DNA from: Gammaproteobacteria bacterium
GTDB lineage: Bacteria; Pseudomonadota; Gammaproteobacteria; GCA-001735895
NCBI GenBank assembly: GCA_024225395.1
Contig: JAAEMR010000174.1
Span: forward strand, 6,057-70,056
Reading direction: 5' to 3'
DNA length: 64,000 nucleotides
Part shown: piece by piece, positions 12,053 to 30,358 of the stretch
Position numbering within the stretch: the stretch's first letter is position 1
How the letters are laid out: every line of letters starts with the position of its first letter
Position numbers and translations under genes: made by a program
Notes under the pieces: generated by a model
The model's input: only the letters and a program-made list of their open reading frames with translations
Database searches by the model: none
What the model was told of the DNA's origin: nothing

Positions 12053-12069
12053 CAGCAATTGATGTGCCA
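12053..12069 (-). promoter_or_regulatory. Sigma-54 type -24/-12 promoter-like element (CTGGCACATCAATTGCT on minus strand) upstream of the NUDIX gene
   Basis: TGGCAC-N5-TTGCT with correct GG/GC spacing. Forms an inverted repeat with the identical element at 12207-12223. Confidence 0.4.
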
Positions 12070-12206
12070 GTCTCTTATGGTTGGAGAAACTTAGTACTCC
12101 CAGCTTTCAACTTATATGAAGAATATCGCTAATTATTCAGCAACATGTGGTACGTGACTTCACTCCAATAGATTAACAACCTATATATAGCACCCTATTA
12201 TCGGCT

Positions 12207-12223
12207 CTGGCACATCAATTGCT
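12207..12223 (+). promoter_or_regulatory. Sigma-54 type -24/-12 promoter (CTGGCACATCAATTGCT) about 145 bp upstream of the OmpA-like gene
   Basis: TGGCAC-N5-TTGCT. Identical core to the minus-strand copy 140 bp away. Confidence 0.5.
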
Positions 12224-12368
12224 AAACAAACTTCATGAAATCTAAATGGGGTGCTAATGATGAAACTATCCATCTATTCATTTGATTCAGCCGAGGTGGT
12301 GCATATGCCGCAAAAAATAACATTGCAAAATGCATCGTCAGTTGCAAAATGGGGCGCAGAATTGATAA

Positions 12369-12884
12369 ATGAATAATCAACTGAAACTACTTAATCTAGC
12401 CCTTTGTGGCATTTTGCTCTCTGGCTGCTCCAGCATGCAGTCACCCCATGCTGATAGAGTCCCCATGTTTTCACATTCGAATCCGCTAAGAGAGGCTCAA
12501 CCACACTCTCCACTTGCAGCTACGACTGATCAGACTTCGAGCCTGGAACATTATAGTCAGTCTACTGTGTTGTACTTCACCAACGATAGTCATGACATTA
12601 CAGCTGATGCAATGCAAAAACTGTTGATTTTTTTTGATCAACTGGCTTCCACATCCTGGCAACCCATCGTGATAGCAGGGCATACGGATTCCAGTAACAC
12701 TGAGGACTACAACATTAATCTGGCTAAACGACGCACACAAAGTGTTAAAGCGCTGTTAACAGGGCTCGGTTATCCTGGTGATTATATTATCGAGCTAGCA
12801 AAGGGAGAGAGCCAGCCGGTGGCTACTAACTCAACCGCCTCTGGCCGTCAGCTCAACCGTCGCGTTGAGATCCAGATTAAGTAA
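12369..12884 (+). CDS. OmpA-family lipoprotein (SypB-like)
   Basis: Lipoprotein signal LSGCSS. C-terminal OmpA peptidoglycan-binding domain (…IAGHTDSSNTEDYNINLAKRRTQSVKALL…NRRVEIQIK). Confidence 0.8.
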   Translation: MNNQLKLLNLALCGILLSGCSSMQSPHADRVPMFSHSNPLREAQPHSPLAATTDQTSSLEHYSQSTVLYFTNDSHDITADAMQKLLIFFDQLASTSWQPIVIAGHTDSSNTEDYNINLAKRRTQSVKALLTGLGYPGDYIIELAKGESQPVATNSTASGRQLNRRVEIQIK

Positions 12885-13057
12885 TTAAAGGTTTAGCATA
12901 TCAGCCCATTATCAGTTTGACCGCTCTATCCAACTTCAGAGACGATCCCTACAGCCTGTCAGGTATATCACTGACGGGTTTAAAGCAGAAGTACAGCTTC
13001 AACCCTTGAATGATTGTTACATTGAATCAACTTTCAATTAAAAAGTGCCGGTTTTTT

Positions 13058-13624
13058 CTACTCTGCCGGAAGATGGACATCAAGGCCCAGGGGCTTACGT
13101 TTCATAATAAGGGCTTCAACCACACCGATTATTATCATCAATAACGTTGTGATGCTATAGACCTGGTAAACAAGGCCATCCTCAAAGGGCATCTGTGCCT
13201 GATTCCATTTCCATAGCAACAAGGGTACCACTGCTACCAGGCCAGGGATCGCTGCGTAACACAGATTGCGCAGTAGACGGTAGAGTCTCATCCCCAGCTT
13301 GAGACCGATAGAATCGTGCAGATACCCAAGTAACAGGAAATAACAAAAGCTGTGGCAGATACCTAGGCAGACGATCATGCCGAACACGGTATCCAGCATG
13401 TAACTCTCATATAAATTATTACTCAGCAAGGACTCCAGACTAACCGCCACTAGCAATATTAATGCGATACGGATCAACAGCTCAACAATCATCACGATAA
13501 ATAATGGTTGCTTTGCCAGTTCACCCCGCCGCGCACGCTCAGAAACTGTAAGATCGATCGCGCGCGGCGGCACTATCAGCAGAACGTATCCTAACAGGTG
13601 GAAAAAATAGATAATACTACGCAT
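13058..13624 (-). CDS. Hypothetical polytopic membrane protein (188 aa), last gene of the minus-strand export operon
   Basis: Five to six hydrophobic helices. No recognisable catalytic motif. Confidence 0.4.
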   Translation of the reverse strand: MRSIIYFFHLLGYVLLIVPPRAIDLTVSERARRGELAKQPLFIVMIVELLIRIALILLVAVSLESLLSNNLYESYMLDTVFGMIVCLGICHSFCYFLLLGYLHDSIGLKLGMRLYRLLRNLCYAAIPGLVAVVPLLLWKWNQAQMPFEDGLVYQVYSITTLLMIIIGVVEALIMKRKPLGLDVHLPAE

Positions 13625-13654
13625 GCTTAACTCCAGCTTGAGTCATCAAAATAT

Positions 13655-14638
13655 TCATTTGTCTATCCACTCCTCACGGTGTGGGTTTGATGGTTCCTGA
13701 ACTGGTTTGGGATTAACCTTCTCGGCGTAAGCTTTGAGATCACGACGTAATGCGGTTACCACACCCATTACAATCACCACAGCAAAACCCAAAAAGACAA
13801 ATCCGATCATACTGAGTGCAGTCCATTTTTTTCGTGGTGGATAAGATTCAAAAAGTGGTTCGGTCGCCGGTTGAATCATCTCCAATGGATAGTTTTCACG
13901 GGCAAAAATCAACGACTCAACGGCCAGTTGTGCCTCCAACAGGCGGTAGATTGATCGATGCACCTCCTTGTTATTGACTACCTTCAATCGGCTTTCCAGA
14001 TAGGCACGACGGCTTTTTAACTCGTCGGCATCCAGTGAACGAATATATAGGTTAAAGGCTCTAACAAAATCATTAGCGAGGCGCGCGGCACGATCCGGCA
14101 TATCCGCGGTTATTCGGATATTTAAAAGATCCGTCTTTTTATCGATATCGATATACAACGCTTCGGATTTAAATTTCTTTACTGCCTCACGCATATCTGG
14201 TTCGACGCCCTCCCTCCATGTTTTTTTTACTTCGTCCCAATCCTGCGTATATAACCACGGCATTAAATTTTGCTCTGTGATAAAAGAGCTGATAAACCCG
14301 AACGATTCCATACGTGCCAGATGTCGCTCACGTTCATTGCTTTGACTGCCATCAATGATGAAGTCGTATTCTATAACACCAATAGTATTTGCCCCCCGGT
14401 AATTCTTCGGTTGTATGCCACCGGGCGTTTCACTGATATTGATCGCAACCTTTGCCTGGGCTGAGAAACGATCCTCGATCAACCATGACAGTCCAAATAC
14501 TACTCCCGCGCCAAGGATTGCAATGATAGCTATGCGGAACTTGTAGCGCAGTAGCTGGTGCATATACTTTAGCAGCAGCTGGTACTCTGCAAACTGTGTC
14601 TCACCGACCTGGAGCTGGTTTGTTTGTTGATTAGCCAT
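13655..14638 (-). CDS. Polysaccharide chain-length determinant (Wzz/PCP family) protein
   Basis: N-terminal TM (IAIIAILGAGVVFGLSWLI), a large periplasmic coiled-coil region, and a C-terminal TM (LSMIGFVFLGFAVVIVMGVV). Confidence 0.7.
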   Translation of the reverse strand: MANQQTNQLQVGETQFAEYQLLLKYMHQLLRYKFRIAIIAILGAGVVFGLSWLIEDRFSAQAKVAINISETPGGIQPKNYRGANTIGVIEYDFIIDGSQSNERERHLARMESFGFISSFITEQNLMPWLYTQDWDEVKKTWREGVEPDMREAVKKFKSEALYIDIDKKTDLLNIRITADMPDRAARLANDFVRAFNLYIRSLDADELKSRRAYLESRLKVVNNKEVHRSIYRLLEAQLAVESLIFARENYPLEMIQPATEPLFESYPPRKKWTALSMIGFVFLGFAVVIVMGVVTALRRDLKAYAEKVNPKPVQEPSNPHREEWIDK

Positions 14639-14639
14639 A

Positions 14640-17477: not shown

Positions 17478-18448
17478 TTGAAGTTTCCTCCTTCACTGGT
17501 GACAAAACGGAGACAACCGGAGAAATCTACGATTCTTCCCGCAGAGGTGTCTGGACAACGATCCCGATAGTCGTAAATCCCGTCACCATCGGTATCAGCC
17601 GGCCCCTTGTACAGAACACTCTGTACAAAATGCGTCATGTCTCTAGGCTGTGCTACCTTGTTCGCAGCAACGGAATACCCACAACTGTCGACTGTTTCAA
17701 GTCGTGTCCGCGAAAGCCGGTTGCCAATTCCCAGGGTATACAGGCAAACACCTGAGCGACTGCCTTGCCAGGGCATCGACTCAGGTTTTGAGTCTACTAT
17801 CCCCATACCGCCTTCAAAACTGCTGCGTTGACGCATGCGCATAACGGCATGTTCAACGGCTTTATCGATTTGAGACCAGGAGGTGATCAGAATTACCGCT
17901 GAGCTACCTTCAACCCGGCTAATCAATTCAGAGACTTTATCGAGAGCCGTAGCCAAAGAGTCACTTTCAATTTGTTCCATTGAACCAGGTGAACCTAAAG
18001 CTTGTTCTACGTCATCAGCGGTAAAGTTGGTCACTAGAAGCTCCTGCCTACGCGGATTCGGTTGCTGGTCGTATTTCAGTAGTGCACCGCTATAGCTCTG
18101 ATCCGGCATTGTTTGAGCAAATCGACGCACCATCTCACGAGCATAAAAGCGAGTCTCTACACCGCGAAACTGGCCTGACATCACTGAACTCTGATCGACC
18201 AGAAAGAACAGGTTTTTAACCCGGGGTTCAAGACTAAGATGAGCAACACGGCTGTCCAGCGGAATCGGGTTGAAGAGGTGAATAGACTGTCGATGAAGCT
18301 CAGTGTTGTAGCTTTTAACAGTCGCCAGTTCAGGTTGTGCAGGAACCTTAACCAACCGTTCTAAAGAAACGCAGCCCACCGAATGCAATACGACAAGCGC
18401 AAGACCCAGGGGTTTTAACAAATGCAGTAAACTATTATTGCTCATCAT
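17474..18448 (-). CDS. Lipoprotein with von Willebrand factor A domain and C-terminal thrombospondin-type-3 Ca-binding repeat
   Basis: Lipobox HSVGC. VWA MIDAS-like …LFFLVDQSSVMSG…. C-terminus DTDGDGIYDYRDRCPDT. 4-bp overlap with the Wza gene. Confidence 0.55.
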   Translation of the reverse strand: MMSNNSLLHLLKPLGLALVVLHSVGCVSLERLVKVPAQPELATVKSYNTELHRQSIHLFNPIPLDSRVAHLSLEPRVKNLFFLVDQSSVMSGQFRGVETRFYAREMVRRFAQTMPDQSYSGALLKYDQQPNPRRQELLVTNFTADDVEQALGSPGSMEQIESDSLATALDKVSELISRVEGSSAVILITSWSQIDKAVEHAVMRMRQRSSFEGGMGIVDSKPESMPWQGSRSGVCLYTLGIGNRLSRTRLETVDSCGYSVAANKVAQPRDMTHFVQSVLYKGPADTDGDGIYDYRDRCPDTSAGRIVDFSGCLRFVTSEGGNFK

Positions 18449-18460
18449 ATTGAACCCCGA

Positions 18461-18925
18461 CTAAACATGCTCATAAGTGGCTTGAATCCAACCTGATGAC
18501 CATAGATCCTGAGGGTGAAACCCGGGGAAGGTATCTATACCCACCAGATTCTTTAGCTTATAAAGCACCATAGACATAAAGCTGAGTGTGGCCAGCGTAA
18601 GACCGAATGAAACCACGTAGTGAAAAGTAAGGCGCAAAGGTCCAGGAATGTTCGCCCTGCGTGAATCTTCCAACCGATAGCTAGATATACGCTGGTCACG
18701 CCCGGTAAAAAAACTGAAATAGAAACTGCGAAAAAACAGCGGTAGATTAAAAATACTGTCTATACGGTGACGCGAAGCCTCATCCCTGGCAATCAATGCG
18801 GATGGTAGCAAATTATAATGTTCATCAGTTAGCAAATCTCTGATCCTTTGAGGCACTCTGCTCAAGGTGAAATCAGCAAATGTCTCGCTATTGACTCTCT
18901 GTTCTATTCTCATACAACTTCTCAT
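18461..18925 (-). CDS. Hypothetical protein (154 aa), first gene of the minus-strand export operon
   Basis: ORF with a C-terminal hydrophobic helix, positioned immediately downstream of a sigma-54 promoter-like element. Confidence 0.35.
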   Translation of the reverse strand: MRSCMRIEQRVNSETFADFTLSRVPQRIRDLLTDEHYNLLPSALIARDEASRHRIDSIFNLPLFFRSFYFSFFTGRDQRISSYRLEDSRRANIPGPLRLTFHYVVSFGLTLATLSFMSMVLYKLKNLVGIDTFPGFHPQDLWSSGWIQATYEHV

Positions 18926-18981
18926 TATTAATTAATATTTTACAAAAAAAATACAAGGCTGTTTCAACTCTGTATTTCGAA

Positions 18982-18998
18982 TGCAAAAAATGAGCCAG
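18982..18998 (-). promoter_or_regulatory. Sigma-54 type -24/-12 promoter-like element (CTGGCTCATTTTTTGCA on minus strand) about 58 bp upstream of the 18925 start
   Basis: TGGCTC-N5-TTGCA. GG and GC are correctly spaced. Confidence 0.4.
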
Positions 18999-19272
18999 CT
19001 AGCTATCAAAGTGATTTCCACTCAGGTAAAGCCAGTTAATGGAATACATATGAGACATACACGGAAGAGGCCTTAAGAAGCTGATATTAATCTATGCTAT
19101 TCGCAATAAAGTCCCGATTACCAAACCACAATATTGAAGGCATATTCTGAATATGCATTGCATTTTGAGAAATTAGCAACCATAAAGCGCTTGTGCACAC
19201 AGCATTGGTAGAGAACGCCTCCCAAGGGCCAAAATAAGCCCCGGTCAGGCATGCGACAGATTCCTGGATACG

Positions 19273-19290
19273 TTGGCATGATATCTGCAG
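19273..19290 (+). promoter_or_regulatory. Sigma-54 type promoter-like element TTGGCATGATATCTGCAG upstream of the biosynthetic operon
   Basis: TGGCAT-N5-CTGCA. Nearly identical to the element at 28150 (TGGCATGATCTCTGCAG). Confidence 0.5.
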
Positions 19291-19491
19291 AACCTGAATT
19301 AGATTTGAATTGGCTTCACCGTTTCGAACCGGATCGGTAGCTTAGGGCAAGGACATATGTGAACGTCTGTTAACAACCCTGCCGGAGTCAATACTGTTTA
19401 AATATGCAGAAAAAGCCGATTTTGCTGCAAGAAGACGGCTTATTTAATGCAGTATGAAAATGATTTTTTTAATTGAGTGAGGAATTTTTCT

Positions 19492-20379
19492 ATGCCAGAC
19501 GTATTCATTTTAGGTTTCACCAAGTGTGCTACGACCAGCATGTACAATCAGTTAATGCAACATGATGGTGTTTCCAATACCAAGCGCAAAGAACCTCATT
19601 TTCATTTCGTGCAGTTTATGGGCGACCGGTTCACAGGATCCGCAGATAACGACACGGTAAGCCAGATGTTTGTTACCGACCCCAGTCAATACCTAAATCT
19701 ATACGAACCTGGAAAGCTGAGTATCGACGGTTCAGCGATGTCGATCGAAGATCCACGTATCGTGGAGAATATCGACACACAGTTCCCGAAAGCCAGGTAC
19801 ATCATCATGCTTCGTGACCCCACTGATAGAGCCTTCTCCGCCTATTCACACCTGATACGCGATGCGCGTGAAACATGCGGCTTTCGTGATGCAATCGATC
19901 ATGAATTGAGCAATGCCCGAGAAGATCACATGCCGATCTGGCGTAACATCAAGTCAAGTCGGTATGTCGATGCGGTACAACATGCACGCAAGTTGCTGGG
20001 TGATCGACTCAAAGTAGTTGCCTATAGTGATTATGCCAAAAACAACAGGCAAACGATGGATGATATCGCCCGCTTTATCGGTTTGAACCCGATTGACTGG
20101 CGGCGTGACCACGCTAACCGCTCGGGTGTGCCTAACTCAAAGCTGTTCCAGAAGGTACTGATGCGTAAATCCCTGGCCAAGACCATCTTTGTCAATGCCT
20201 TTCCACAAAGCCTGGTTACATCATTAAAACGCAACCTGATGGAGCGCAATACAGGCGCAAAACCTGAGCTGACAGATGAGGATCGTACTTATTTTCAAGC
20301 CTGCATCGCTGATGAGATCGGCAAAATAGAACCGGGCACCCAGGACAGCGAATTGTTAAGGTCACTATACCGCGCATGA
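19492..20379 (+). CDS. Sulfotransferase-family protein
   Basis: 5'-PSB-like motif …FILGFTKCATTSMYNQL…. A 3'-PB-like region is also present (…IIMLRDPTDRAFSAYSH…). ATG at 19492 has GAGG 10 nt upstream; the ORF track uses an upstream GTG. Confidence 0.7.
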   Translation: MPDVFILGFTKCATTSMYNQLMQHDGVSNTKRKEPHFHFVQFMGDRFTGSADNDTVSQMFVTDPSQYLNLYEPGKLSIDGSAMSIEDPRIVENIDTQFPKARYIIMLRDPTDRAFSAYSHLIRDARETCGFRDAIDHELSNAREDHMPIWRNIKSSRYVDAVQHARKLLGDRLKVVAYSDYAKNNRQTMDDIARFIGLNPIDWRRDHANRSGVPNSKLFQKVLMRKSLAKTIFVNAFPQSLVTSLKRNLMERNTGAKPELTDEDRTYFQACIADEIGKIEPGTQDSELLRSLYRA

Positions 20380-21671
20380 CTGATACGAAGACAGCTTCGG
20401 CTGTTCCTCACATACTGTTTGGGATGTTTCTGCTGGAGATATTTTTCCTTTTTGTGAAAAAAATTGATGGAACACTGTATGGCGTATTCGACAATCTCGA
20501 AAAGCTGTATCCGGTAATTGCGATCCTGCTGTTGACCGCTTTTATGAAACTCAAGCTCAACTCTCATTGGTGGATGGCGCTGGGGTTTTACTCGGCCTAT
20601 CTACTATATGGAGTGTTGATCTCTTTAGCGCACCAGAAGGGAATAAAAATAATTCTGGTCCAGCTTTACCATGAAATGAAGTTCTTCCCGGTGATGTTCC
20701 TGTTTGCCATGGTGCGCTGTGATGACCGTTGGGCGAAGCTGACTCTGAAGGTTATCAAACCAATCATTATTATCACCGTAGTGCTGATTCTATTTCAGCT
20801 TGCGGCTCCGGGAGCCTACGATGCCATTTTTAAAAATGGTGGTCACTTTGAGAAAGGGCATTTTGGCGGAATGTTGTTGCCTCGCCTGGTAGGATGGTTC
20901 TGGCATCCGGGCCAGATCGCATTGTTTTTCCTGATTGCAGCCGTGTTTTTTATCGTCGAGTACCAGAAAGGCAGTATCAAGTTTGGTTTCTCGATGGTAT
21001 TCCTTTGTGTACTTTTTGTATTGCTGGCCATTCAACGCTTCGAACTGCTAATCCTTATCATTGTGCTGATGACCTTCTGGTTTCGGCGCTATATCAACCT
21101 GGATTATCGTCCCTATCTGGCTGGCCTGATCTTTATCCTTTTTTCGTCCAGCATTATCTATATCATTTCAGATGAAGCACACTTCTGGACACTGCTCGAA
21201 AATTTCAATTCACCACGAACCGTTTTTCTGGTTGAGGCTCTGTTCACGCTGGTCGAGAGCAACTACTGGGGGGCCGGATGGGGAACTATCGGCAGCCATG
21301 CGGCTGCAGATGTGGCCAATGTCTATGAATACAACGCTATGAAGGATCTTTGGTGGATTAAGCTCGGACAGTATTTCTACGATACCTACTGGCCCCATGT
21401 GATCGGTGAGACAGGTCTACCCGGCTTCTTTTTCCTGCTGTTGTCCATGGTTTTCATGATCCGTGCTTTTAGACGGCCGGAAGCCAGCATCCTGATGTTT
21501 GTCCTGATTCTTACCAGCGCACTGTCATCCAACGCCCAGTCACTATATCACCTGACGGTATTCGGCTGGTTCATCATGCTGCTGGAAAACACTGACAATA
21601 AAGAAGTCCCACATGAACCGGTGAAGATATCTGCATCTACATCGACTAACAATATAGGAGTTAAATTATGA
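20376..21671 (+). CDS. O-antigen ligase/polymerase-like (Wzy_C family) polytopic membrane protein
   Basis: About ten TM helices with a large loop. ATGA start/stop overlaps on both sides, indicating operon coupling. Confidence 0.7.
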   Translation: MTDTKTASAVPHILFGMFLLEIFFLFVKKIDGTLYGVFDNLEKLYPVIAILLLTAFMKLKLNSHWWMALGFYSAYLLYGVLISLAHQKGIKIILVQLYHEMKFFPVMFLFAMVRCDDRWAKLTLKVIKPIIIITVVLILFQLAAPGAYDAIFKNGGHFEKGHFGGMLLPRLVGWFWHPGQIALFFLIAAVFFIVEYQKGSIKFGFSMVFLCVLFVLLAIQRFELLILIIVLMTFWFRRYINLDYRPYLAGLIFILFSSSIIYIISDEAHFWTLLENFNSPRTVFLVEALFTLVESNYWGAGWGTIGSHAAADVANVYEYNAMKDLWWIKLGQYFYDTYWPHVIGETGLPGFFFLLLSMVFMIRAFRRPEASILMFVLILTSALSSNAQSLYHLTVFGWFIMLLENTDNKEVPHEPVKISASTSTNNIGVKL

Positions 21672-23191
21672 ACAGAAATAATCAGTTATCAGGGGTTGCC
21701 ATTGTGGGTACCCGGGCCCGCGGTGGAATTTACGCTGTGATCGAGAACCATATACAGGCGGGTGTGTATGAAGGCTATGAGCACTATTTCATCGCCTCAC
21801 ACGACGAAGTGGGCATAGTAAATCGAGTTATTCTGGCACTAACTTCCCTGTTCACCCTGATCAGCTTGATCATTCGAGGCAAAATATCAGTATGCCACCT
21901 GCATGGGTCGATGAAGGGAAGTATTTACCGTAAGTCGACCTTCGTCTTCGTGTGTCGTTTGCTGGGCTGCAAAGTTATTTTTCATCTTCATGGCTCGGAA
22001 TTTGCAAAAACCTATGAAAAAAGAGGTGGCATTTACAAACGCCTTGTCCGTTATGTGCTAAACCAGTCAGACAATGTCTTCGTACTTTCTGACTATTGGA
22101 AAACCTATGTTGAAACAATATCAGTTAACACTGAAATCCATGTCATAAACAACTTCCCTGCTCCAGTATATGAAACGCTCTACGACACCAGAGAATACTC
22201 TAAAAAGTCAACTACTGAGCTACTTTTCCTGGGGTACATTGGTCAACGTAAGGGGATTTACGACCTCGTTGAAGCTGTCGCTTTACTAAAGGCCAGAGGC
22301 ATTGAAGGGTTCCATATCAATGTCGGTGGTAATGGCGAAGTCGACAAACTCAAAGCACTGGTAGCAGAGAGGGATTTGACTCAATATTTTAACGTTATCG
22401 GCTGGGTTAGTGGCGATCAAAAGCACCAGCTCCTGAAACAATCTGATCTTTTATTATTGCCGTCACACAATGAAGGTCTGCCGATTGCAATCCTGGAAGC
22501 CATGTCAGCTGGTTTGGCAGTTTTAAGTACCAGGGTTGGCGGTATTCCCGATGCCATCAGCGATGAACGCTATGGTCTGCTGGTGGAACCGGGAAAACCT
22601 GAAGACCTGGCCAATGCAATCTCACGTTACCTGGACACTAAAGGACTGATCAAGTCGGTTACCAGAAATGCCCGCGAGCTGTATGACGAGGTTTACTCAG
22701 CTCAAGCCAACGTCGCTAAAATCAGAACTGTAATTGACAGGTTAAAACACAAACGAAAGAAAAAAGTACTCGCAGTGGCATCCAAGGGAGGCCATTCAAT
22801 TCAATTGATGCGTCTTAAACCTGTTTTGGATCAATATGATACAAGCTATGTTTCGAGCCAACATTACGATGGCATGGATAACTTTACCCGCGTAACAGAT
22901 GCCAACCGAAATTCTAAATTCCGCCTCATGCTGTTGTTCTTTCAGGTGTTATGGATCGTTATTCGAAAACGTCCAAACATTGTCATATCAAGTGGTGCTG
23001 CACCAGGGTACTTCACTGTACTTTGTGGAAAGCTACTCGGAGCAAAAACTATCTGGATCGATAGCATTGCTAACGCTGAGGAGTTGTCAATGTCAGGGCA
23101 ACGTGCTGGAAAGTTTGCTGACCTGTGGTTAACCCAATGGCCGGAAGTAGCGCATGAAAATGGCCCTAAATATGGAGGTCGTGTCCTGTGA
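21668..23191 (+). CDS. Fusion: GT4 (glycosyltransferase family 1) N-terminal domain plus Alg14-like C-terminal domain
   Basis: GT4 EX7E region …EGLPIAILEAMSAGLAVLSTRVGGIPD…. The C-terminal 140 aa (…KKVLAVASKGGHSIQLMRLKPVL…GAAPGYFTVLCGKLLGAKTIWIDSIAN…) resemble the Alg14/PssD/Cps14F membrane-anchor subunit. Confidence 0.7.
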   Translation: MNRNNQLSGVAIVGTRARGGIYAVIENHIQAGVYEGYEHYFIASHDEVGIVNRVILALTSLFTLISLIIRGKISVCHLHGSMKGSIYRKSTFVFVCRLLGCKVIFHLHGSEFAKTYEKRGGIYKRLVRYVLNQSDNVFVLSDYWKTYVETISVNTEIHVINNFPAPVYETLYDTREYSKKSTTELLFLGYIGQRKGIYDLVEAVALLKARGIEGFHINVGGNGEVDKLKALVAERDLTQYFNVIGWVSGDQKHQLLKQSDLLLLPSHNEGLPIAILEAMSAGLAVLSTRVGGIPDAISDERYGLLVEPGKPEDLANAISRYLDTKGLIKSVTRNARELYDEVYSAQANVAKIRTVIDRLKHKRKKKVLAVASKGGHSIQLMRLKPVLDQYDTSYVSSQHYDGMDNFTRVTDANRNSKFRLMLLFFQVLWIVIRKRPNIVISSGAAPGYFTVLCGKLLGAKTIWIDSIANAEELSMSGQRAGKFADLWLTQWPEVAHENGPKYGGRVL

Positions 23192-23661
23192 TTTTATTAA
23201 CAGTAGGTACTCAGTTGCCCTTCGATCGATTTGTTAAATTGGTTGATGAGTGGGCGTGTAAAAACCCCGAGGTGGAAATTCTTGCGCAAATCGCGAGTGG
23301 CACCTATACCCCAAAGCATATGGAGTATGTTGATTACCTGGATGAGAAAAGATATGCCGAAGTATTTGAAAAGGCAGAGGTTATTTTAGCCCATGCAGGC
23401 ATGGGATCGGTTATCAGTTCACTGATCGCCTCTAAACCCGTTATCGTTTATCCACGCAAAGCATCGCTGGGTGAGCACCGTAATGAGCACCAGTTGGCTA
23501 CCTGTCAGAAGCTATCCTACCTCAAGGGATGTTATATTGCCTACGAGCCTGAGGCGTTATTTACGACTCTTGATGAACTCAGTTCGCTGGAAGGTGGATC
23601 AATTAATCCCTATGCCAATGATGATCTGCTTGCAACTATCGATAATTTTATTGCCGGATAA
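23188..23661 (+). CDS. Alg13-like / PssE / Cps14G-like glycosyltransferase catalytic subunit (Glyco_tran_28_C)
   Basis: MILLTVGTQLPFDRFVKLVDEW…AGMGSVISSLIASKPVIVYPR…. GTG start overlapping the upstream stop (GTGA). Confidence 0.7.
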   Translation: MILLTVGTQLPFDRFVKLVDEWACKNPEVEILAQIASGTYTPKHMEYVDYLDEKRYAEVFEKAEVILAHAGMGSVISSLIASKPVIVYPRKASLGEHRNEHQLATCQKLSYLKGCYIAYEPEALFTTLDELSSLEGGSINPYANDDLLATIDNFIAG

Positions 23662-23684
23662 GTCTGGATGCAAAGGTCCTAATT

Positions 23685-24995
23685 ATGAATCACATCATGC
23701 GTCTTAGTTCCCGCCTGAGCGACCCGCATATACGAGAGGTCGTACTCGGTAGTCTTATTGGCCTGGGTATAAAAGTGTTGTCAGCGGTCAGTCTATTCAT
23801 TATGAATATGGTAGTCGCGCGAACTCTTGGTGCAGCAGAGGCGGGATTGTTTTTTCTTGGCTTTACTCTGGTCACTGTTGTTGCAGCCGTAGGACGCCTC
23901 GGCCTGGATCAGAGCCTTGTCCGTTTTATAGCTGCATCTAGTGCAACTCATTCAACCGGTGTACTGCATGGCGTTTATCGAAAATCAATAGGTTGGGTAG
24001 CCATCGCGAGTATCGGATTCGCTTTACTAGGCTGGATTAACACTGACCGTTTGGTTGAACATGTATTTAATCAGCCTGGTTTTGAACCCGTGTTGCGATC
24101 ATTTTTGATAGCAATTCCGTTGGTTGCTTTATACACCATGCATGCTCATGCGCTTCAGGGGCTTAAACAGATAGCAAAATCGATGTTGACGCTCAACGTT
24201 CTGGTGCCTGTTACACTGCTACTATTGTTGCTGATTGCCCCGGTAAAATCTGCTGATGCGGTTGCTAACTACTTCAATATCGCCTGTCTGCTCACATTGG
24301 GCACAGGCCTGTTGTTCTGGATTAAATCAGCACCAAAAACAGAAAAAGTAGAAAGTTTCTCCTCAACCCAGCTTCGTAAGACTTGCACTCCACTTTGGGT
24401 CGTCGCCATGTTATCGCAAGTGGTACAGTGGGCTCCGCAGTTGATGCTAGGTGCCTGGGCTTCTTCAGAAAATGTAGCCTTTTTTGCTGTCGCCCAACGC
24501 ACGGCGATGCTAACCAGTTTCGTTCTTTTTGCAGTCAATGCGATTGCCGCCCCTAAATTTGCCGCAATGCACGCGAAAGGAGATAGTGAGGGCTTGAAAC
24601 GCGTGGCAATCTGGTCTGTGCGTCTGATGTTATTGGCTGCGGTTCCTGCATTGATGCTGATGCTTTTGGCTCCTGAATGGTTGATGAGTTTTTTTGGTGA
24701 AGAGTTCCGTGCAGCATCGACGGCGTTGATGATCCTTGCTCTAGGTCAGTTTGTGAATATCGCAACGGGTTCTGTAGGTTATTTACTGAGCATGACGGGG
24801 CATGAACGTGATTTACGCAACAATGCGATCATTAGTGCAGTTATCGGATTGACGCTTGGTTTGGTTCTAATACCAGGTTATGGTTTGTTAGGCGCTACAG
24901 TTGCTACAGCGGTAGCGGTAGCCTCTCAGAACCTTTTAGGGGTTTATCAAGTCCGCAAACACCTTGGATTTAATACACTGGTGTTCTGGAAGTAG
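23685..24995 (+). CDS. Polysaccharide biosynthesis protein / Wzx-type flippase (MOP superfamily)
   Basis: 436 aa with 12 or more TM helices and the typical Wzx architecture. Confidence 0.75.
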   Translation: MNHIMRLSSRLSDPHIREVVLGSLIGLGIKVLSAVSLFIMNMVVARTLGAAEAGLFFLGFTLVTVVAAVGRLGLDQSLVRFIAASSATHSTGVLHGVYRKSIGWVAIASIGFALLGWINTDRLVEHVFNQPGFEPVLRSFLIAIPLVALYTMHAHALQGLKQIAKSMLTLNVLVPVTLLLLLLIAPVKSADAVANYFNIACLLTLGTGLLFWIKSAPKTEKVESFSSTQLRKTCTPLWVVAMLSQVVQWAPQLMLGAWASSENVAFFAVAQRTAMLTSFVLFAVNAIAAPKFAAMHAKGDSEGLKRVAIWSVRLMLLAAVPALMLMLLAPEWLMSFFGEEFRAASTALMILALGQFVNIATGSVGYLLSMTGHERDLRNNAIISAVIGLTLGLVLIPGYGLLGATVATAVAVASQNLLGVYQVRKHLGFNTLVFWK

Positions 24996-25100
24996 AGAAC
25001 ATTGATGTGTATACATCAGCCTTCACTCTAGCAGTATATTTCCCGGGACATCCCGATCTCGACAACACATTTTGCAATTTAATAATCACGTTGGTTAGCC

Positions 25101-26054
25101 ATGAGTGAATCAATACCAAAAATTACAGTGATAATACCGGCATATAATGCTGAGAAGACAATATGTCGTTCAATTGACTCGGCTCTACTTCAAAATGATA
25201 TCGACATCGAAATTATCATCATTAATGACTGCTCATCAGATTCCACTGAGAGTGTTATAAGGAATAGATACTCAGCATACAAGAATATAAAACTGCTTAA
25301 AACCAGGCGCAATTCTGGTCCGAGTGTGGCGCGGAATATGGGTATTGAAAATGCGACTGGAAACTGGATAGCATTACTTGATGCAGATGACTGGTTTGCG
25401 AAAAATCGCCTGTCAATACTCTATAAAAATGCATTAGAGTATGATCTCGATTTTATTGCTGATAGTTATCATTTGTGTAGCAGTGAGAATACAACGCCAC
25501 ACTCAGTTTGTTTTACCATTTTTTCTAAGCCTGATAGCTTAAAGGTGATCAGTAGTTCTCAGTTTGTTAGCAAAGGACTAGGTTCTGTAAAGCCTGTTAT
25601 CAAGAAGGAATTTCTTGATAACACCGGCATTCGCTTTAATCCGTTGGTATGGCGGGGCGAAGATATGATGTTTTTCGTAACATTATTAATTAATAATGCC
25701 CATTTCGGGTTATTAAATACACCTCTTTACTATAGGCAGGATACACTGGGTTCTCTTACAAAATCAGATAAAGTAATATTACTTACAGAAATGCATGAAG
25801 TATTTGTTGAGCTTCAGGAAATTGTTATTGCTGCAGGAAAGGAAGATGATGAAGTTATAAGCGCTTTGCAGTATAGAGCACATGTCGTTCAGGATACATT
25901 GGCAGCCGCTAAGTGGGAAATATGGATAAAAGATATGCCAAAGGTTACCAGCCTGTTAAATGCTGTTCGTCATGTATTATTTAAACGTAAGCGCTATCCA
26001 GTTAATAAGGCACGGAACGGAACTCAACTCACTAGTGCAACGGGTGGGATGTAA
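25101..26054 (+). CDS. Glycosyltransferase family 2
   Basis: …ITVIIPAYNAEKTICRSIDSALLQN…IIINDCSSDST… GT-A fold with a DxD (…LLDADDW…). Confidence 0.8.
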   Translation: MSESIPKITVIIPAYNAEKTICRSIDSALLQNDIDIEIIIINDCSSDSTESVIRNRYSAYKNIKLLKTRRNSGPSVARNMGIENATGNWIALLDADDWFAKNRLSILYKNALEYDLDFIADSYHLCSSENTTPHSVCFTIFSKPDSLKVISSSQFVSKGLGSVKPVIKKEFLDNTGIRFNPLVWRGEDMMFFVTLLINNAHFGLLNTPLYYRQDTLGSLTKSDKVILLTEMHEVFVELQEIVIAAGKEDDEVISALQYRAHVVQDTLAAAKWEIWIKDMPKVTSLLNAVRHVLFKRKRYPVNKARNGTQLTSATGGM

Positions 26055-26577
26055 GCCCTCGTCTGCTCACACCTTTGCAGGTTGTTGATTTTAAATCCTG
26101 CTTTTTTGATGTATCAAAAACAGGTGTTTTTTGTTATGACACTATCTCAACATCTTTTTTTACTTTAAATTTATGTCGATATTGGTTCAGTGGCATTTCA
26201 ATAAACCTATACGATATATACGCCCTATATATGATTAATCCAATACCAAAGATCATCATGATATCGGCAACAATGGTTCTTTCAAAAACTATTTTTGTTG
26301 TACCTTCTGTATCAACAGAAATAGATCCAAAAAATATTGGTGAGAAAAGTTGACTAATTATTTTTTGAAAAAGCTGGATTACTAGCAACCAAATTAAACT
26401 GATGTTCTACAGTTTAGCTGGCACATTCAATCCCCGGGTAAGCATTAATATATAAAATGGGTATAAGCGAAAATTCGTTTTACCTGGAAGTCATATAACT
26501 CCGTTATTGAATTGATTTTATCCTGCTAATTTAATGCTATAACAAATCCGGATAACACGAAAAAGAAATCAACCATT

Positions 26578-26700
26578 AATCGTAAAAGTTAAAGCCAAAG
26601 CCATTTATATTGCTGCTGGTGACAATTTTGCCGGACGATAAACTGTATAGCCGCCGGTAACCAGATTTACGCACTAACGGGAACATCGCTTCCAAATATT
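26578..26700 (-). pseudogene. Degenerate fragment paralogous to the N-terminal region of the GEVED/LruC-like secreted protein gene (8324-10429)
   Basis: About 70 percent nucleotide identity to 10201-10330. Minus-strand translation …YSLSSGKIVTSSNINGFGFNFY matches …YSLLSSDLGTNNKINGFGFNFH. No intact ORF. Confidence 0.5.
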
Positions 26701-26752
26701 TCACTTCATGGGTTACTGGTATCTTCCTGCGGAGTATCACAGCCCGGATGCT

Positions 26753-27757
26753 TTACATGGCACCGCAGTCTTTGCTGAACACAACCCCCACCGTTTTGAA
26801 CAATAGCCTGAGGTCGTAGAGCTGGCTCCAGTTTCTCTGATATCGCAAATCCAGGCGAATGATGTCTTCAAAATCCTTGATCGAGGAACGACCATTCACC
26901 TGCCATTCACCGGTAATACCAGGTTTCACATCTAAACGGCGCCACTCGGGCACGTCATACTGATCAATCTCTTCCGCCGTGGGTGGACGTGTGCCCACCA
27001 GGCTCATGGAACCTTCGAGCACGTTCCAGAACTGGGGCAGCTCATCAAGGCTTGTACGTCTTAGAAAACGCCCTACCTTCGTAATTCGTGGATCATTTTC
27101 TGCTTTGAAAATAGCGCCTTTGGCTTCATTAACTACTTCGAACTTGCGAGCTTCCGCGTCCGGAACCATAGAACGAAACTTCCACAACTTGAATTTTCGT
27201 CCCATCCATCCACAGCGAGTCTGGCTGAAGAGCAAGGGTCCCGCCCCGTCACTTCTGATGGCAATCGCGATGGGAATGAACAATAAGCCGGTTATAAACA
27301 ACCCTAGCAGCGCACCAAAAATATCGACGACCCGTTTGATACGGGAGCGAACGGAAGCATGGGTCACAGGAAGCTTATCTGCTTCGTTTGAGACTGATGC
27401 AGATTCCATATTTTCCGATGACTCAATGTTGAGGACTCTGTTCAGCCCGGTCATGGTCAAGACCGCCTCTATCTGGGGTCTGAGACCACTGACCACGAGA
27501 TCAATGCCAGTGCTTTTCGACATCTTGATAGTGCTTACCAACGCTCCTATTCCACTGCTATCTAAAAAACTAGTTTTGGAAAAATCCAGGTTTACCTTGA
27601 GTGGCGGCACTTCAGTTTCACAAATAGATTTGAAGGTATTGTTAAACGGCACGGCTTCAACGACGGTAAATTCCTTGGGCATTTCGATGATCATGGCATC
27701 GGCACTCTTCGATATCTGGTAGTATTGACTTATTTCAATGTTTTGATTTTTTTTCAT
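26753..27757 (-). CDS. Fusion: N-terminal STAS (anti-sigma-factor-antagonist) domain plus C-terminal bacterial sugar transferase (priming glycosyl-1-phosphate transferase, Bac_transf/PglC-WbaP family)
   Basis: STAS: …IIEMPKEFTVVEAVPFNNT…LKVNLDFSKTSFLDSSGIGALVSTIKMSKSTGIDLVVSGLRPQIEAVL… with the DSSG phospho-Ser motif. Transferase: TM VVDIFGALLGLFITGLLFIPIAIAI, then …RKFKLWKFRSMV…DELPQFWNVLEGSMSLVGTRP…. Start ATG at 27757 with a GGAGAAG RBS. The 387-aa extended ORF is rejected because it would include its own sigma-54 promoter. Confidence 0.8.
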   Translation of the reverse strand: MKKNQNIEISQYYQISKSADAMIIEMPKEFTVVEAVPFNNTFKSICETEVPPLKVNLDFSKTSFLDSSGIGALVSTIKMSKSTGIDLVVSGLRPQIEAVLTMTGLNRVLNIESSENMESASVSNEADKLPVTHASVRSRIKRVVDIFGALLGLFITGLLFIPIAIAIRSDGAGPLLFSQTRCGWMGRKFKLWKFRSMVPDAEARKFEVVNEAKGAIFKAENDPRITKVGRFLRRTSLDELPQFWNVLEGSMSLVGTRPPTAEEIDQYDVPEWRRLDVKPGITGEWQVNGRSSIKDFEDIIRLDLRYQRNWSQLYDLRLLFKTVGVVFSKDCGAM

Positions 27758-27898
27758 GTAACTTCTCCAAAATACAGGTAACGTAACTAATCTGTTCTGC
27801 CTTAGGTCAGATATGGATAATTCCAATTTAAATTTCCACTGGATCACTGTTGGTTTAGTCGTATTGCTCACCCTTACAGTTTTCCATTGATCTATGCC

Positions 27899-27916
27899 TT
27901 GCAATGACTGTGCCAA
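27899..27916 (-). promoter_or_regulatory. Sigma-54 promoter TTGGCACAGTCATTGCAA (minus strand), perfect TGGCAC-N5-TTGCA, about 145 bp upstream of the STAS-sugar transferase start
   Basis: Exact match to the consensus -24 TGGCAC and -12 TTGCA with canonical spacing. Confidence 0.6.
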
Positions 27917-28149
27917 CGTTTTTGATAACGTTTTTTACTGGTTTATCCGCTTCTATTTTCAGAATGCATTGCAATATGCTTTTTCATCGAAGGTATTTTC
28001 GCGGGATGCTTATATTTGAGAAATTTTCAACCCAAATTTTATTTCTCAGTTCATCACAAAATGCATAAACTTAAAATTCTCACTAAGCCCATATGCAGCT
28101 CAACATGTAACTCGTTGATTTTTGAATTATTAAATATATATTTAATGTC

Positions 28150-28166
28150 TGGCATGATCTCTGCAG
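28150..28166 (+). promoter_or_regulatory. Sigma-54 type promoter-like element TGGCATGATCTCTGCAG about 195 bp upstream of the SypE-like gene
   Basis: Near-identical to the 19273 element. Correct GG/GC spacing. Confidence 0.5.
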
Positions 28167-28358
28167 TGTTTGCTAACACCACCACTCAATTGCGGAGTTA
28201 CAGATGAATACTGAATATACCAACCAGGCTAATATATATGCATTGGGATCTACTCAAATACGTCCCGAACAAGAACAGGTTGGCAACATAGATGAATTAT
28301 TACGTGAAATTAGCCGCCTGGATCCTGCTATTAACGGGTTGACCTAATAATTAATAAA

Positions 28359-29933
28359 ATGGTTTCAGCAAAGCAACTTACTAAATCTGGAGATATAAAT
28401 TCAGTGAATCGTCTACTCATAGAAAACCAGCAACCGGCAACACTCGAATCCGTTCGTGAGCTACGCCATTTACTGGAACAGGTAACTCTGATGAGGGTTC
28501 CACAATCATTCATAAAAAAACGTATGCTGCTTTGCCTGTCAGAAGCAGCCACAAACCTGATACAACATGCTTCAACCAGGTTGAGTCAGATCACCATGCG
28601 TTTCGGAAAAAACAACACCGGCTGGTGGCTGGAAATTTTAGATGATGGCAATGCATTGGACCCAGCCAATGCAGTATTACCAAATAGTCTGGATAAATTT
28701 AGTGAATCCGAAAGTGATCGAGGTCTATCATTATTGAATAGCTTGTGTGACCATTTTGAATATCAGGCAGCCAGCAGTGGTAACGAGTTGAACAGACTAA
28801 GACTTCTGTGGAATAGCCCGGCACAGAATACTCGACCCCATATCCTTTTGGTAGAAGATGATAATTCCCTGCGTAAATTGTATGAACTTTACCTGGCAGA
28901 AACATTAGAAGTTACCACTGCAGCCAGTGGTCAGGAAGCATTATTGAAGCTAGAAACAGAGCAGATCGACCTGGTATTATCAGATATCTGCATGCCACAA
29001 ATGGATGGCATAGCATTACGCGAGCAACTGATCACAGACAGCAATTCACGCTTGATTCCTTTCATATTTCTAACTGCGATGGGTGATACTGCTCATGTTG
29101 AAAAAGCCACCAGTCTGGGTATTGATGACTATCTGACCAAACCGATAAAGAAAGAACAGTTAATCATAACCATTCAGCGTGTGTTGAAACGATCTGAGCA
29201 AGTCTACCAACAGTTGACTGACCGCATAGATGAGGGAATCACTTCTTCACTCGCACCCAGTGTACCGAAAATGAATAATAACTGGAATCTTGGCATCGCA
29301 AATCGTCACACTGGCAGCGGTGGAGGGGATCTTTTGTTACACCGGTCAGGCAAAGATTTTATGCAGATAATGCTCACCGATATCATGGGGCATGATGATT
29401 GTGCCAAATTTTTTGCTCATGCCTGTGGTGGCTATCTCAGAGGATTGATGAATGCCGCTACTTCAGATAGAAATCCTGCGAAGTTACTGGATCAAATGTC
29501 TGACTTTTGTCTACAGGATCAACTGATGTCAAAAATAACTCTGACCAGTTGCTCAGCTGTTTTATCGAATAACGGTGAGATCACCCTGGCCTGCGCCGGA
29601 CACCCACCGCCACTGCTAATCACCCCGAAAGGCATCAGCAAACTACAAGTCAGCGGTATACTACCTGGTCTGATTCCCGATACCAATTATCAATCGACAA
29701 CATTTAAGGTGGCGGCAGATGAAAGAATCGTCCTGTATACCGATGGACTATTTGAGTCTGCAGCAGATGAAAAACTTCGGCAACAACTAGAACAGCGAAT
29801 AACTTCAGAGCTCGTTAATACCCTGAATGACCCCATTGAACAGGCACTGGAAAAAATAATGGCCGTTTTTGATGAACTGGGGGGATCACCGCCTAAGGAT
29901 GATGTACTGTTGCTTTTAATGGCGCCGGTTTAA
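28359..29933 (+). CDS. SypE-like three-domain regulator: N-terminal RsbW-type Ser kinase (HATPase_c_2), central REC receiver, C-terminal PP2C/SpoIIE Ser phosphatase
   Basis: N-terminus …LCLSEAATNLIQHAS…WWLEILDDGNALDP…. REC …ILLVEDDNSLRKLYELYL…DLVLSDICMPQMDG…LTAMGD…. PP2C …GGDLLLHRS…DIMGHDDCAKFFAH…ACAGHPPPLLI…LYTDGLFE…. Confidence 0.8.
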   Translation: MVSAKQLTKSGDINSVNRLLIENQQPATLESVRELRHLLEQVTLMRVPQSFIKKRMLLCLSEAATNLIQHASTRLSQITMRFGKNNTGWWLEILDDGNALDPANAVLPNSLDKFSESESDRGLSLLNSLCDHFEYQAASSGNELNRLRLLWNSPAQNTRPHILLVEDDNSLRKLYELYLAETLEVTTAASGQEALLKLETEQIDLVLSDICMPQMDGIALREQLITDSNSRLIPFIFLTAMGDTAHVEKATSLGIDDYLTKPIKKEQLIITIQRVLKRSEQVYQQLTDRIDEGITSSLAPSVPKMNNNWNLGIANRHTGSGGGDLLLHRSGKDFMQIMLTDIMGHDDCAKFFAHACGGYLRGLMNAATSDRNPAKLLDQMSDFCLQDQLMSKITLTSCSAVLSNNGEITLACAGHPPPLLITPKGISKLQVSGILPGLIPDTNYQSTTFKVAADERIVLYTDGLFESAADEKLRQQLEQRITSELVNTLNDPIEQALEKIMAVFDELGGSPPKDDVLLLLMAPV

Positions 29934-29967
29934 CTTAACTAATGGCAGTTTGATCAAAAGCAGTTAA

Positions 29968-30210
29968 CACAAATCCACACCATTGACCTATTCCTCATCG
30001 ATCTAACTCTAGAGGATGGTAATGGCCTTAACATTGCCAGAAATATCGGTGAAAAATCAACTGTTGGTATCATCATTGTCTCTGGAAAAACCCGTGATAT
30101 TGATCGAGTTGTCGGGTTGGAGATTGGAGCCGATGACGACATCAGCAAACCTTATTTATCCACGTGAGCTATTAGCCCGTGTTCGACCGTTCTTCGACGA
30201 ACAGAAGGCA
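29968..30210 (+). pseudogene. Remnant of an OmpR-family (ArcA/TorR-like) response-regulator gene: internal REC fragment with a frameshift, lacking both N-terminus and wHTH domain
   Basis: Translation …IDLFLIDLTLEDGNGLNIARNIGEKSTVGIIIVSGKTRDIDRVVGLEIGADDDISKPY then a +1 shift to PRELLARVRP… resembles ArcA/TorR residues about 50-125. No start codon, no phospho-acceptor region, no DNA-binding domain. Confidence 0.55.
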
Positions 30211-30342
30211 ACCGCTATCCTGACAAAAAGAAAACTTTTACTCCGAAAAAGTATCATTCTCAATAATTTAAAAAACAGTACACAACATATAGCACCAGGT
30301 TTTATTGATATTAATGATATTTTAAATATTGACTAAATTAAG

Positions 30343-30358
30343 TGGCATAGATATTGCA
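30343..30358 (+). promoter_or_regulatory. Sigma-54 promoter TGGCATAGATATTGCA about 65 bp upstream of the REC-PBP-HK-EBP operon
   Basis: TGGCAT-N5-TTGCA with canonical spacing. A TTCTCAA motif lies about 85 bp upstream. Confidence 0.55.

Follow-up and report, generated by a model that had tools for sequence, protein, structure and literature searches.

The window analysed here, a 64,000-nt stretch of contig JAAEMR010000174.1 from a gammaproteobacterium, carries between about 6 and 35.5 kb a gene set that, judged by profile searches and a homolog search, is a syp-like exopolysaccharide and biofilm locus, with predicted sigma-54 promoters of the -24/-12 type in front of its operons. The structural genes encode a 945-aa Poly_export/SLBB exporter, a sulfotransferase, glycosyltransferases, Wzx and a priming sugar-phosphotransferase fused to a STAS domain, and the locus further holds genes for an OmpA-like protein, an epimerase and a DUF4842/GEVED protein. 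Its signalling genes comprise a SypE-type regulator with HATPase_c_2-REC-SpoIIE architecture (28404-29933, +), the true start of which lies 15 codons downstream of the start of the long open reading frame (ORF), a small response regulator (30424-30843, +), a PhnD-like periplasmic protein (30818-31705, +), a SypF-type hybrid kinase with HisKA-HATPase-REC-Hpt domains (31756-34086, +) and a SypG-type enhancer-binding protein (34083-35486, +). The last has REC, AAA+ Sigma54_activat and HTH_8 domains, a GAFTGA motif and a Walker A motif, in agreement with the initial annotation of this DNA, which had placed an NtrC-type enhancer-binding protein in the locus.

For comparison, about 90 related loci were collected, to which labels such as L003, L005 and L089-L095 refer. 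Canonical relatives show the gene order sypA-B-C-D-E, then (response regulator-PhnD), sypF and sypG, and a second lineage, formed by L090-L095 and including Salinimonas iocasae, has the structural genes of the window, with exporters 72-87% identical. SypE, a SypF-like kinase and a SypG-like activator occur together in the window, and the same module in the same order is present in L003-L005 and in Parasalinivibrio L089; a free-standing SypA followed by SypB-SypC-SypD in a single operon, with a unidirectional 18-gene order, was not found in the window. The activator shares 64% identity with its counterpart in Parasalinivibrio latis (Vibrionaceae), which has a canonical syp locus, 79.7% with that of the canonical locus L003 and 66% with the native activator of L095. 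Its assignment as a true LuxO was rejected, as it reached 641.7 bits against an NCBIfam equivalog cutoff of 800; the activators of the syp loci L089 and L003, with 647 and 653 bits on the LuxO model, likewise stay below this value. A PEP-CTERM/PrsR identity was also rejected (TIGR02915, 365.5 vs. a cutoff of 502.6), and the exporter falls below the cutoff for XrtA systems (140.4 vs. 180). By these scores and identities the activator is of the SypG type, related to LuxO but not LuxO.

Seven -24/-12 elements had been placed by the initial annotation at the operon starts between 12 and 30.4 kb, and all of them were present within 0-1 nt of the positions given (12053-12069 is 1 nt off). Each shows the canonical 10-nt spacing from GG to GC, set within TGGCAC-N5-TTGCW. 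The element at 12054-12070(-) (CTGGCACATCAATTGCT, 17.0 bits) lies 33 nt from the ATG of an operon with a NUDIX-like gene (11454-12020) and a HATPase_c_2 gene (10762-11166). The identical 17-mer CTGGCACATCAATTGCT is found at 12207-12223(+), before a STAS remnant (12257-12373) and the OmpA-like gene (12369-12884), so that the two form a perfect 17-nt inverted repeat with arms 136 nt apart. Directly upstream of the 12207 element we also observed a sigma-70-like match, TTAACA-17-TATTAT (10 of 12), at 12173-12201(+), which could provide basal expression of the OmpA-like gene. A second divergent pair is made up of 18982-18998(-) (CTGGCTCATTTTTTGCA, 16.2 bits), facing the export operon (p154, VWA-like, 945-aa exporter, p327 and p188, from 18925 down to 13058), and 19273-19289(+) (TTGGCATGATATCTGCA, 18.7 bits; also read as TGGCATGATATCTGCA, 19273/4-19289(+)), which precedes the biosynthesis operon (sulfotransferase to Wzx and GT2, 19477-26353) with a leader of 187 nt. 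In the third pair, 27900-27916(-) (TTGGCACAGTCATTGCA, 18.9 bits) faces the gene of the STAS-fused priming sugar-phosphotransferase (26753-27757), and 28149-28165(+) (CTGGCATGATCTCTGCA, 18.3 bits; also read as TGGCATGATCTCTGCA, 28149/50-28165(+)) is the putative ancestral sypA promoter, standing now before a 47-codon sypA remnant (28204-28347) and sypE. The signalling operon, which runs from the small response regulator to the activator, is preceded by 30342-30358(+) (GTGGCATAGATATTGCA, 15.5 bits; also read as TGGCATAGATATTGCA, 30342/3-30358(+)), 65 nt from the ATG.

All seven elements are intergenic and face a gene start, 28-190 nt before the start codon. The pattern TGGCAYN5YTGCW has 6 matches in the 64 kb vs. 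0.54 expected, a number reached in 0 of 100 shuffles, and every one of these matches is intergenic and directed at a gene start; the looser TGGCN8TGCW gives 14 matches vs. 5.7 expected. A sigma-54 matrix scan of the whole window, as the initial annotation had suggested, returned the seven elements among the eight top scores, the remaining one (21990-22006) being inside a gene. At 15.5 bits or more, 6 sites were counted, whereas 300 simulations gave 0.63 on average and never more than 5. In their enrichment, intergenic position, correct orientation and distance to the start codon, the elements behave like genuine sigma-54 promoters; they are non-random and, as described below, conserved in related bacteria.

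A sigma-54 site at the sypA position was found in 30 of the 37 canonical relatives. The sequence of this promoter in the relatives, TGGCAYGATCYCTGCW, is very close to the 28149 and 19273 elements of the window, and the 5′ untranslated stretch that follows the sypA-type promoter ('aattgcggagt') is conserved as well. Relatives also have a sigma-54 site upstream of the response regulator-PhnD-kinase-activator operon, for example ATGGCACAGTCATTGCA in L005. When the exporter/sulfotransferase spacer was aligned six ways (window and five orthologs), the only clear conserved blocks were the leftward -24/-12 element and one upstream element; the rightward promoter was poorly aligned, yet the matrix scan finds its counterpart in every ortholog (TTGGCATGAAACCTGCT and similar). 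L091 has the same divergent pair of STAS-OmpA and NUDIX genes, with promoters TTGGCACATCAATTGCT and CTGGCACACCAATTGCT 134 nt apart vs. 136 nt in the window. The NUDIX-side promoter CTGGCACACCAATTGCT takes the same place as 12054-12070(-), and the two promoters are the only parts conserved between these spacers, the rest of which is not alignable. In L095, TTGGCATAGCTATTGCA, upstream of an operon with STAS138 and STAS-PGT, is the ortholog of the 27900(-) promoter. Each of the seven predicted promoters has a positional counterpart elsewhere, and the claim that all operons starting between 12 and 30.4 kb have such a promoter is supported by enrichment, intergenic position, orientation and counterparts in related loci.

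These results bear on the simplest alternative, that the -24/-12 matches arose by chance in AT-rich intergenic DNA and the operons use sigma-70 promoters. The sigma-70-like site adjoining the 12207 element would fit such a reading, as would the equally good sigma-54-like match inside a gene at 21990-22006. Against it stand the 6 matches where 0.54 were expected, the intergenic position and correct orientation of 7/7 elements, the lack of enrichment of sigma-70-like sites in the window (28 vs. 36 expected) and the finding that the elements are the only conserved blocks in otherwise unalignable spacers. The chance reading appears hardly credible, being effectively refuted by conservation.

The related loci also served to define the enhancer, or upstream activating sequence (UAS), of the family. 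Unbiased 7-mer counting was applied to the relatives, the window being excluded; in the 210-nt stretches preceding 79 non-redundant sigma-54 sites, CTTCGCA, TTCGCAT and TTTGCAA were 12-13-fold enriched. The enhancer TT[C/T]GCA-N3-TGCAA is kept across about 85 related loci, and the refined matrix, with the consensus GCTT[C/T]GCATTTTGCAAAT and background percentiles of 7.5 bits (95th) and 12.4 bits (99th), detects a site in 70 of the 79 regions, mostly 85-125 nt upstream of the promoter. This consensus consists of the LuxO palindrome TTGCAWWWTGCAA with an extra flank and differs by a single base from TTCTCANNNTGMDWN, the SypG enhancer published for V. fischeri (Ray 2013, cited in PMC10162802). 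Parasalinivibrio L089 served as positive control, with TTCTCAATATGAAAT 87 nt upstream of its sypA promoter. In the sypA promoters of 11 relatives the site is part of a double element, TTTGCAAAAC-N-TT[C/T]GCA-N3-TGCAAA, about 85-115 nt upstream.

In the window, sites above the 95th-99th background percentile occur upstream of five of the seven promoters, namely 12054(-), 18982(-), 19273(+), 27900(-) and 28149(+), and of both extra candidate promoters described further below. The best scores within 300 nt in the three divergent spacers are 14.4, 12.3 and 9.0 bits. A dyad at 19145-19171 (TTCTGAATATGCATTGCATTTTGAGAA) is a putative shared UAS of the 19-kb pair, with 19273(+) about 110-130 nt and 18998(-) about 170 nt away; it can be aligned with TGCATTGCAAnnTGCAA, which apart from the promoters is the one conserved block in the five orthologs. 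The minus-strand half of this dyad, 19158-19171(-) (TTCTCAAAATGCAA), is a perfect match to the SypG enhancer TTCTCANNNTGMDWN and the only such match under the strict pattern, with one-mismatch matches at 19145 and 27956. Since the pattern with one mismatch allowed is not enriched window-wide (20 vs. 16.5 expected), its count gives no statistical argument on its own. The UAS of the 27900(-) promoter, at 27954-27983 (reverse strand AAAGCATATTGCAATGCATTCTGAAAA), has one mismatch to the SypG consensus and aligns with AGTGCAAATTGCAATGCATCCTGAAAA of L095, at 66 nt from the promoter vs. 67 nt in L095.

For the sypA-type promoter, a degenerate UAS at 28041-28069 (ATTTCTCAGTTCATCACAAAATGCATAAA, 9.0 bits, over the 95th percentile) corresponds in position to the double element of the relatives, with TTCTCA in place of TTTGCA at 28043. 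Between this UAS and the promoter lies a putative site for integration host factor (IHF) at 28108-28120(-) (AATCAACGAGTTA), an exact match to the consensus WATCAANNNNTTR, of which there are only 5 in the 64 kb. The sypA promoters of the relatives show a block TAAC-N3-TTG(T/A)TT in the same place. The IHF consensus has no overall enrichment in the window and is positionally meaningful only at 28108. In the 12-kb region, a LuxO/SypG-type UAS at 12321-12338 (TTGCAAAATGCAT, 14.4 bits, above the 99th percentile) is situated in the 5′ end of the STAS remnant, 268 nt upstream of 12054(-), and L091 has TTTTCGCATTTTGCAAGG (21.4 bits) 267 nt upstream of its NUDIX promoter.

Variation among close relatives was also recorded. 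Three JGI metagenome contigs are 99.6-99.7% identical to the window, and the differences between these strain twins are too few for a constraint test. One strain variant, L086, has lost one copy of a direct repeat by a 12-nt deletion (window 27915-27926) just upstream of the 27900(-) promoter, which leaves the promoter intact and shifts the spacing between UAS and promoter by about one helical turn. Orthologs of the biosynthesis operon have an internal sigma-54 promoter with a UAS between the GT2 and Alg14-like genes (L090 3825-3841; L091 3401-3417; L092 4084-4100; L093 3830-3846). The window has lost this internal promoter; here GT2 has been relocated to a place after Wzx, and a fusion of the GT4 and Alg14/PssD-like genes at 21668-23191(+) encodes a single 507-aa protein. 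A search of genome contigs with the 507-aa glycosyltransferase matched only two unrelated loci (Acidobacteriaceae, Arthrobacter).

The initial annotation had proposed as enhancer a TTGAGAAATT-type motif lying midway between the divergent pairs. This proposal survives in part: TTGAGAA at 19165 is a half-site of the conserved UAS and stands exactly where the five orthologs have TTTGCAA, but the enhancer of the family as a whole is of the TT[C/T]GCA-N3-TGCAA form. The 17-mer TTGAGAAATTAGCAACC is present at 19165-19181 as described. The second copy, reported at 28026-28042, is 10 nt off; TTGAGAAATTTTCAACC is really at 28016-28032(+), and its function is uncertain. It is not conserved in the relatives and sits between the two conserved UAS, 27954-27983 and 28041-28069, at the junction of sequence related to the two syp lineages, where it forms an inverted repeat, TGAGAAAT-N16-ATTTCTCA, with 28041-28048. 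Neither is the AATTAGCAACC flank at 19 kb (AATTnnCAACC) conserved in the five orthologous spacers, and the 15/17 match between the two inter-promoter spacers was reached by 2.2% of simulated pairs, which is only nominally significant. Two further TTCTCAA variants had been listed: the one at 12080 reads in fact GGAGAA (TTCTCC on the other strand), in a spacer that is not conserved, and the one at 30257 is present but its TGCAA half is missing; neither of the two is supported by conservation or by the family matrix.

Several of these observations would be expected if TTGAGAAATTnnCAACC were a distinct element, either the operator of another regulator or a lineage-specific scar at the join of the two lineages. 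The CAACC flank and the 28016 copy lack conservation in orthologs, this copy has its own inverted repeat and lies between conserved UAS elements, the spacer match is only nominally significant, and the recognition helix of the activator is of the type found with TT[C/T]GCA. On the other hand, TTGAGAA at 19165 coincides exactly with the TTTGCAA half-site of the orthologous UAS, TTCTCA at 28043 replaces the TTTGCA of the relatives, and TTCTCA is 12-fold enriched in the UAS windows (TTCTCA/TGAGAA, 5 copies vs. 0.40 expected in the zones 60-200 nt ahead of the seven promoters, 726 nt in all) and equals the published SypG half-site. For the motif itself, a distinct element appears unlikely.

The reading we favor, with a probability of about 0.8, is that the operons of the locus run from sigma-54 promoters fired by the locus-encoded SypG-type activator, in a system of the known syp kind. 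A number of points weigh against it. The window holds no rpoN, and the sigma-54 weight matrix is an approximation of the published consensus. The UAS of the window reach 9-14 bits vs. 15-26 bits in the relatives and are weaker here, and the matrix finds no family UAS in the 300 nt preceding 30342(+) and none ahead of 12207(+), the sole site found for the latter lying downstream. The accumulation of strong UAS sites in front of the sigma-54 sites of the relatives (72/131 in 1.7% of the sequence) is partly circular, as the matrix was trained on such regions. Both the 12321 site and its L091 counterpart fall within the STAS codons T-L-Q-N-A, and codon constraint could explain their conservation. 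Finally, the helix-turn-helix of the activator, GNIPKAAALLEVSPSTIYRKKQ, is identical to that of relatives using TTCGCA/TTTGCA; relatives using TTCTCA (L089, L057, L059) have GNVL(K/N)AAVLLE..L. TTCTCA as the preferred half-site of the activator was downgraded, given that the recognition helix matches the users of TT[C/T]GCA; it may be a weakened half-site, and in this organism a one-base variant of TTCGCA that is tolerated is a likelier reading than a determinant of specificity.

Across the C-termini of the activators (window 35300-35486) we observed a covariation of helix and enhancer, in which GNVL(K/N)AAVLLE..L goes with TTCTCA and GNIPKAAALL..I with TT[C/T]GCA. The exceptions are the window and L074, which has a TTTCA site. 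This is a small lead on the site specificity of LuxO and SypG.

The promoters could also be genuine and driven, wholly or partly, by some other enhancer-binding protein, such as a true LuxO or a LuxO-family paralog encoded elsewhere, in which case the locus would be wired to quorum sensing. Such wiring is suggested by the LuxO consensus TTGCAWWWTGCAA contained in the conserved UAS of the relatives, by the LuxO-like character of the best palindromes in the window (7148-7160 and 12323-12335), and by the overlapping sites that SypG and LuxO share at qrr1 of V. fischeri (PMC10162802). In the same organism, however, LuxO does not activate syp promoters (PMC10162802). The window encodes a cognate activator within the locus, with a DNA-binding helix identical to that of the locus-encoded activators of relatives, and no luxO or qrr gene was seen in it; its long leaders gave no Rfam match and no qrr RNA. 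Control by another activator appears improbable, and we retain the locus-encoded SypG-type protein as the likely regulator.

Autoregulation of the signalling operon, as the initial annotation had proposed from the 30342(+) element, is plausible because the position of the promoter is conserved and no terminator-like site was found between sypE and this promoter, in scans for terminators and sigma-70 sites that were uninformative overall. It is weaker than had been implied because the family UAS is missing within 300 nt; the signalling-operon promoter of the relatives has a strong UAS. The place of that UAS is filled in the window by an ORF at 30016-30336(+), which encodes the C-terminal part of a receiver domain (GLEIGADDDISKPYLSTRELLARVR), has no Pfam/NCBIfam match and is probably a response-regulator pseudogene fragment.

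Two candidates had been missed among the promoters listed. The first, at 7050-7066(-) (GTGGCACAGTTTTAGCA, 13.8 bits), with TAGCA at -12, precedes the start codon of the epimerase gene (6010-7014) by 35 nt and has a putative UAS at 7145-7162 (GTTTCGCATGCTGCAAGC, 14.0 bits), 96 nt upstream; epimerase genes of the relatives also carry sigma-54 sites. The second is a degenerate sigma-54-like element at 10464-10480(-) (ATGGCATGATATTTGGA), before the DUF4842/GEVED gene (8324-10429), in which the -12 GC has become GG. Upstream of it, 10620-10667 contains two UAS-like sites of 14.3 and 13.4 bits. L095 has ATGGCATGATATTTGAT in the same place (about 150-166), likewise without the -12 C, so that these elements before DUF4842/GEVED genes in two lineages possibly represent a non-canonical class of sigma-54 promoter. 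With the two candidates added, the regulon probably spans 6-35.5 kb.

From the sequences, their enrichment and conservation and the domain content of the proteins, we infer binding, sigma-54 dependence and signal flow as follows. The PhnD-like periplasmic protein and the SypF-like hybrid kinase (HisKA-HATPase-REC-Hpt) would sense a signal, upon which the kinase would phosphorylate the receiver domain of the activator. The activator would then oligomerise on TT[C/T/G-or-T]CA-N3-TGCAA sites, which stand 65-270 nt ahead of the promoters; in two of the divergent spacers, two promoters would share one site or dyad. DNA looping would allow the GAFTGA loop to touch the sigma-54 holoenzyme at -24/-12, and ATP hydrolysis would open the promoter; the sypA-type promoter has its IHF-type site at 28108-28120. 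The predicted outputs are export (945-aa exporter), biosynthesis (sulfotransferase, glycosyltransferases and Wzx), the STAS-fused priming transferase, SypE, the accessory operons and, probably, the signalling operon itself.

The gene content points to a composite history of the locus. The 47-codon ORF p47 (28204-28347, +) aligns with the N-terminus of SypA, with sypE directly next to it and sypB-D missing there, and on this alignment is a decayed canonical SypA. A 39-codon ORF at 12257-12373(+) corresponds to the N-terminus of the STAS protein of the other lineage, cut by a deletion that reaches as far as the start codon of ompA. A 287-nt gap (11167-11453) separates the NUDIX-like gene from the HATPase_c_2 gene, and at this place L091 and L094 have a gene for a REC-PP2C protein of 432-438 aa. 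By its gene content this is a split SypE-like module without its phosphatase, alongside the fused SypE at 28404-29933. Because sypA and the STAS gene are decayed, the REC-PP2C gene is absent and the activator is closer to L003 than to L095 (79.7% vs. 66%), the arrangement suggests a graft, in which structural genes of one syp lineage received the signalling cassette of a different one.

More specifically, but only tentatively and with less than even confidence, a cassette of SypE-RR-PhnD-SypF-SypG (RR, response regulator), together with the sypA promoter and the decayed sypA, may have replaced the native activator, REC-PP2C and free STAS. If true, the graft would work because both lineages use the same logic of sigma-54 and TTGCA-N3-TGCAA, and the change from TTGCAA to TTCTCA at two orthologous half-sites would record a re-tuning of the enhancer toward, or its insulation from, a LuxO-family activator. 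A twin of the locus of the window (L087) and a canonical sypABCDE locus (L003), with SypE proteins 62% identical, were seen in the same JGI sample, 3300017598. Our literature search found no published description of the second lineage, with its 945-aa exporter, sulfotransferase, STAS-fused transferase and NUDIX/HATPase module, and nothing relevant on a sulfotransferase/Alteromonas exopolysaccharide cluster under sigma-54 control.

The priming sugar-phosphotransferase (26753-27757, -) carries an N-terminal, SypA-like STAS domain. Among the best 120 homolog clusters (56-76% identity), which come from Gammaproteobacteria, Chromatiaceae among them, and many Cyanobacteria, almost every one shows this STAS+Bac_transf architecture. 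Because STAS is fused to the priming transferase, the architecture hints that a SypE/SypA partner switch acts on this enzyme, and it suggests a target for such a switch.

SypG and ScvE are described as sigma-54-dependent activators of syp and scv loci (PMC10162802; PMC8941931), and the V. fischeri syp locus with SypG, sigma-54 promoters and the syp enhancer goes back to Yip 2005 and Ray 2013, as cited in PMC10162802 and PMC5801674. The window resembles the V. fischeri system in having a sigma-54 promoter before each operon of the exopolysaccharide locus, a LuxO-related REC-AAA+-HTH activator encoded after the hybrid kinase, a SypE-type RsbW-REC-PP2C regulator with a STAS partner, and an enhancer about 90-130 nt upstream with the half-site TTCTCA-N3-TG, perfect at 19158-19171. 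It differs in that the unidirectional sypA-R order is absent and three divergent promoter pairs share spacers, in its 945-aa exporter, sulfotransferase and STAS-fused transferase, which belong to another lineage, and in the decay of sypA to remnants. Most of its UAS, moreover, are weak and closer to the LuxO-like TT[C/T]GCA-N3-TGCAA.

With the scv locus of V. parahaemolyticus and the rbd locus of V. vulnificus (ScvE/RbdG) it shares a wide, divergent distribution in aquatic Gammaproteobacteria marked by gene loss, fusion and transfer, scv homologs being reported from 28 genera (PMC8941931). The passages of that study consulted here give operon-level quantitative reverse transcription PCR and a comparison of gene content rather than promoter or UAS sequences (PMC8941931). 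The gene set of the window, with its sulfotransferase, 945-aa exporter and NUDIX/HATPase module, differs from that of scv. The LuxO-qrr system of Vibrionaceae has a sigma-54-dependent activator too, and its UAS core TTGCAWWWTGCAA is the same palindrome as in the relatives of the window. The recognition helix of LuxO we take to be near-identical in type to that of the activator (GNIPxAA..L.VSPSTIYRK). The activator of the window differs from LuxO in its score (641.7 bits vs. 800) and in its place inside an exopolysaccharide locus, and no qrr RNA was found in the window.

Beyond the window, about 85 loci outside Vibrionaceae conserve the architecture of promoter, UAS and, at sypA, an IHF-like block, with a definable consensus and spacing. 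Their TTCGCA, TTTGCA and TTCTCA half-sites and two helix-turn-helix variants offer material on how syp promoters are insulated from LuxO, a question posed in PMC10162802. For the window itself the outcome is mainly a confident regulon annotation in an uncultured marine gammaproteobacterium: the design is already known from V. fischeri, V. parahaemolyticus and V. vulnificus, and the locus is an ordinary case of it.

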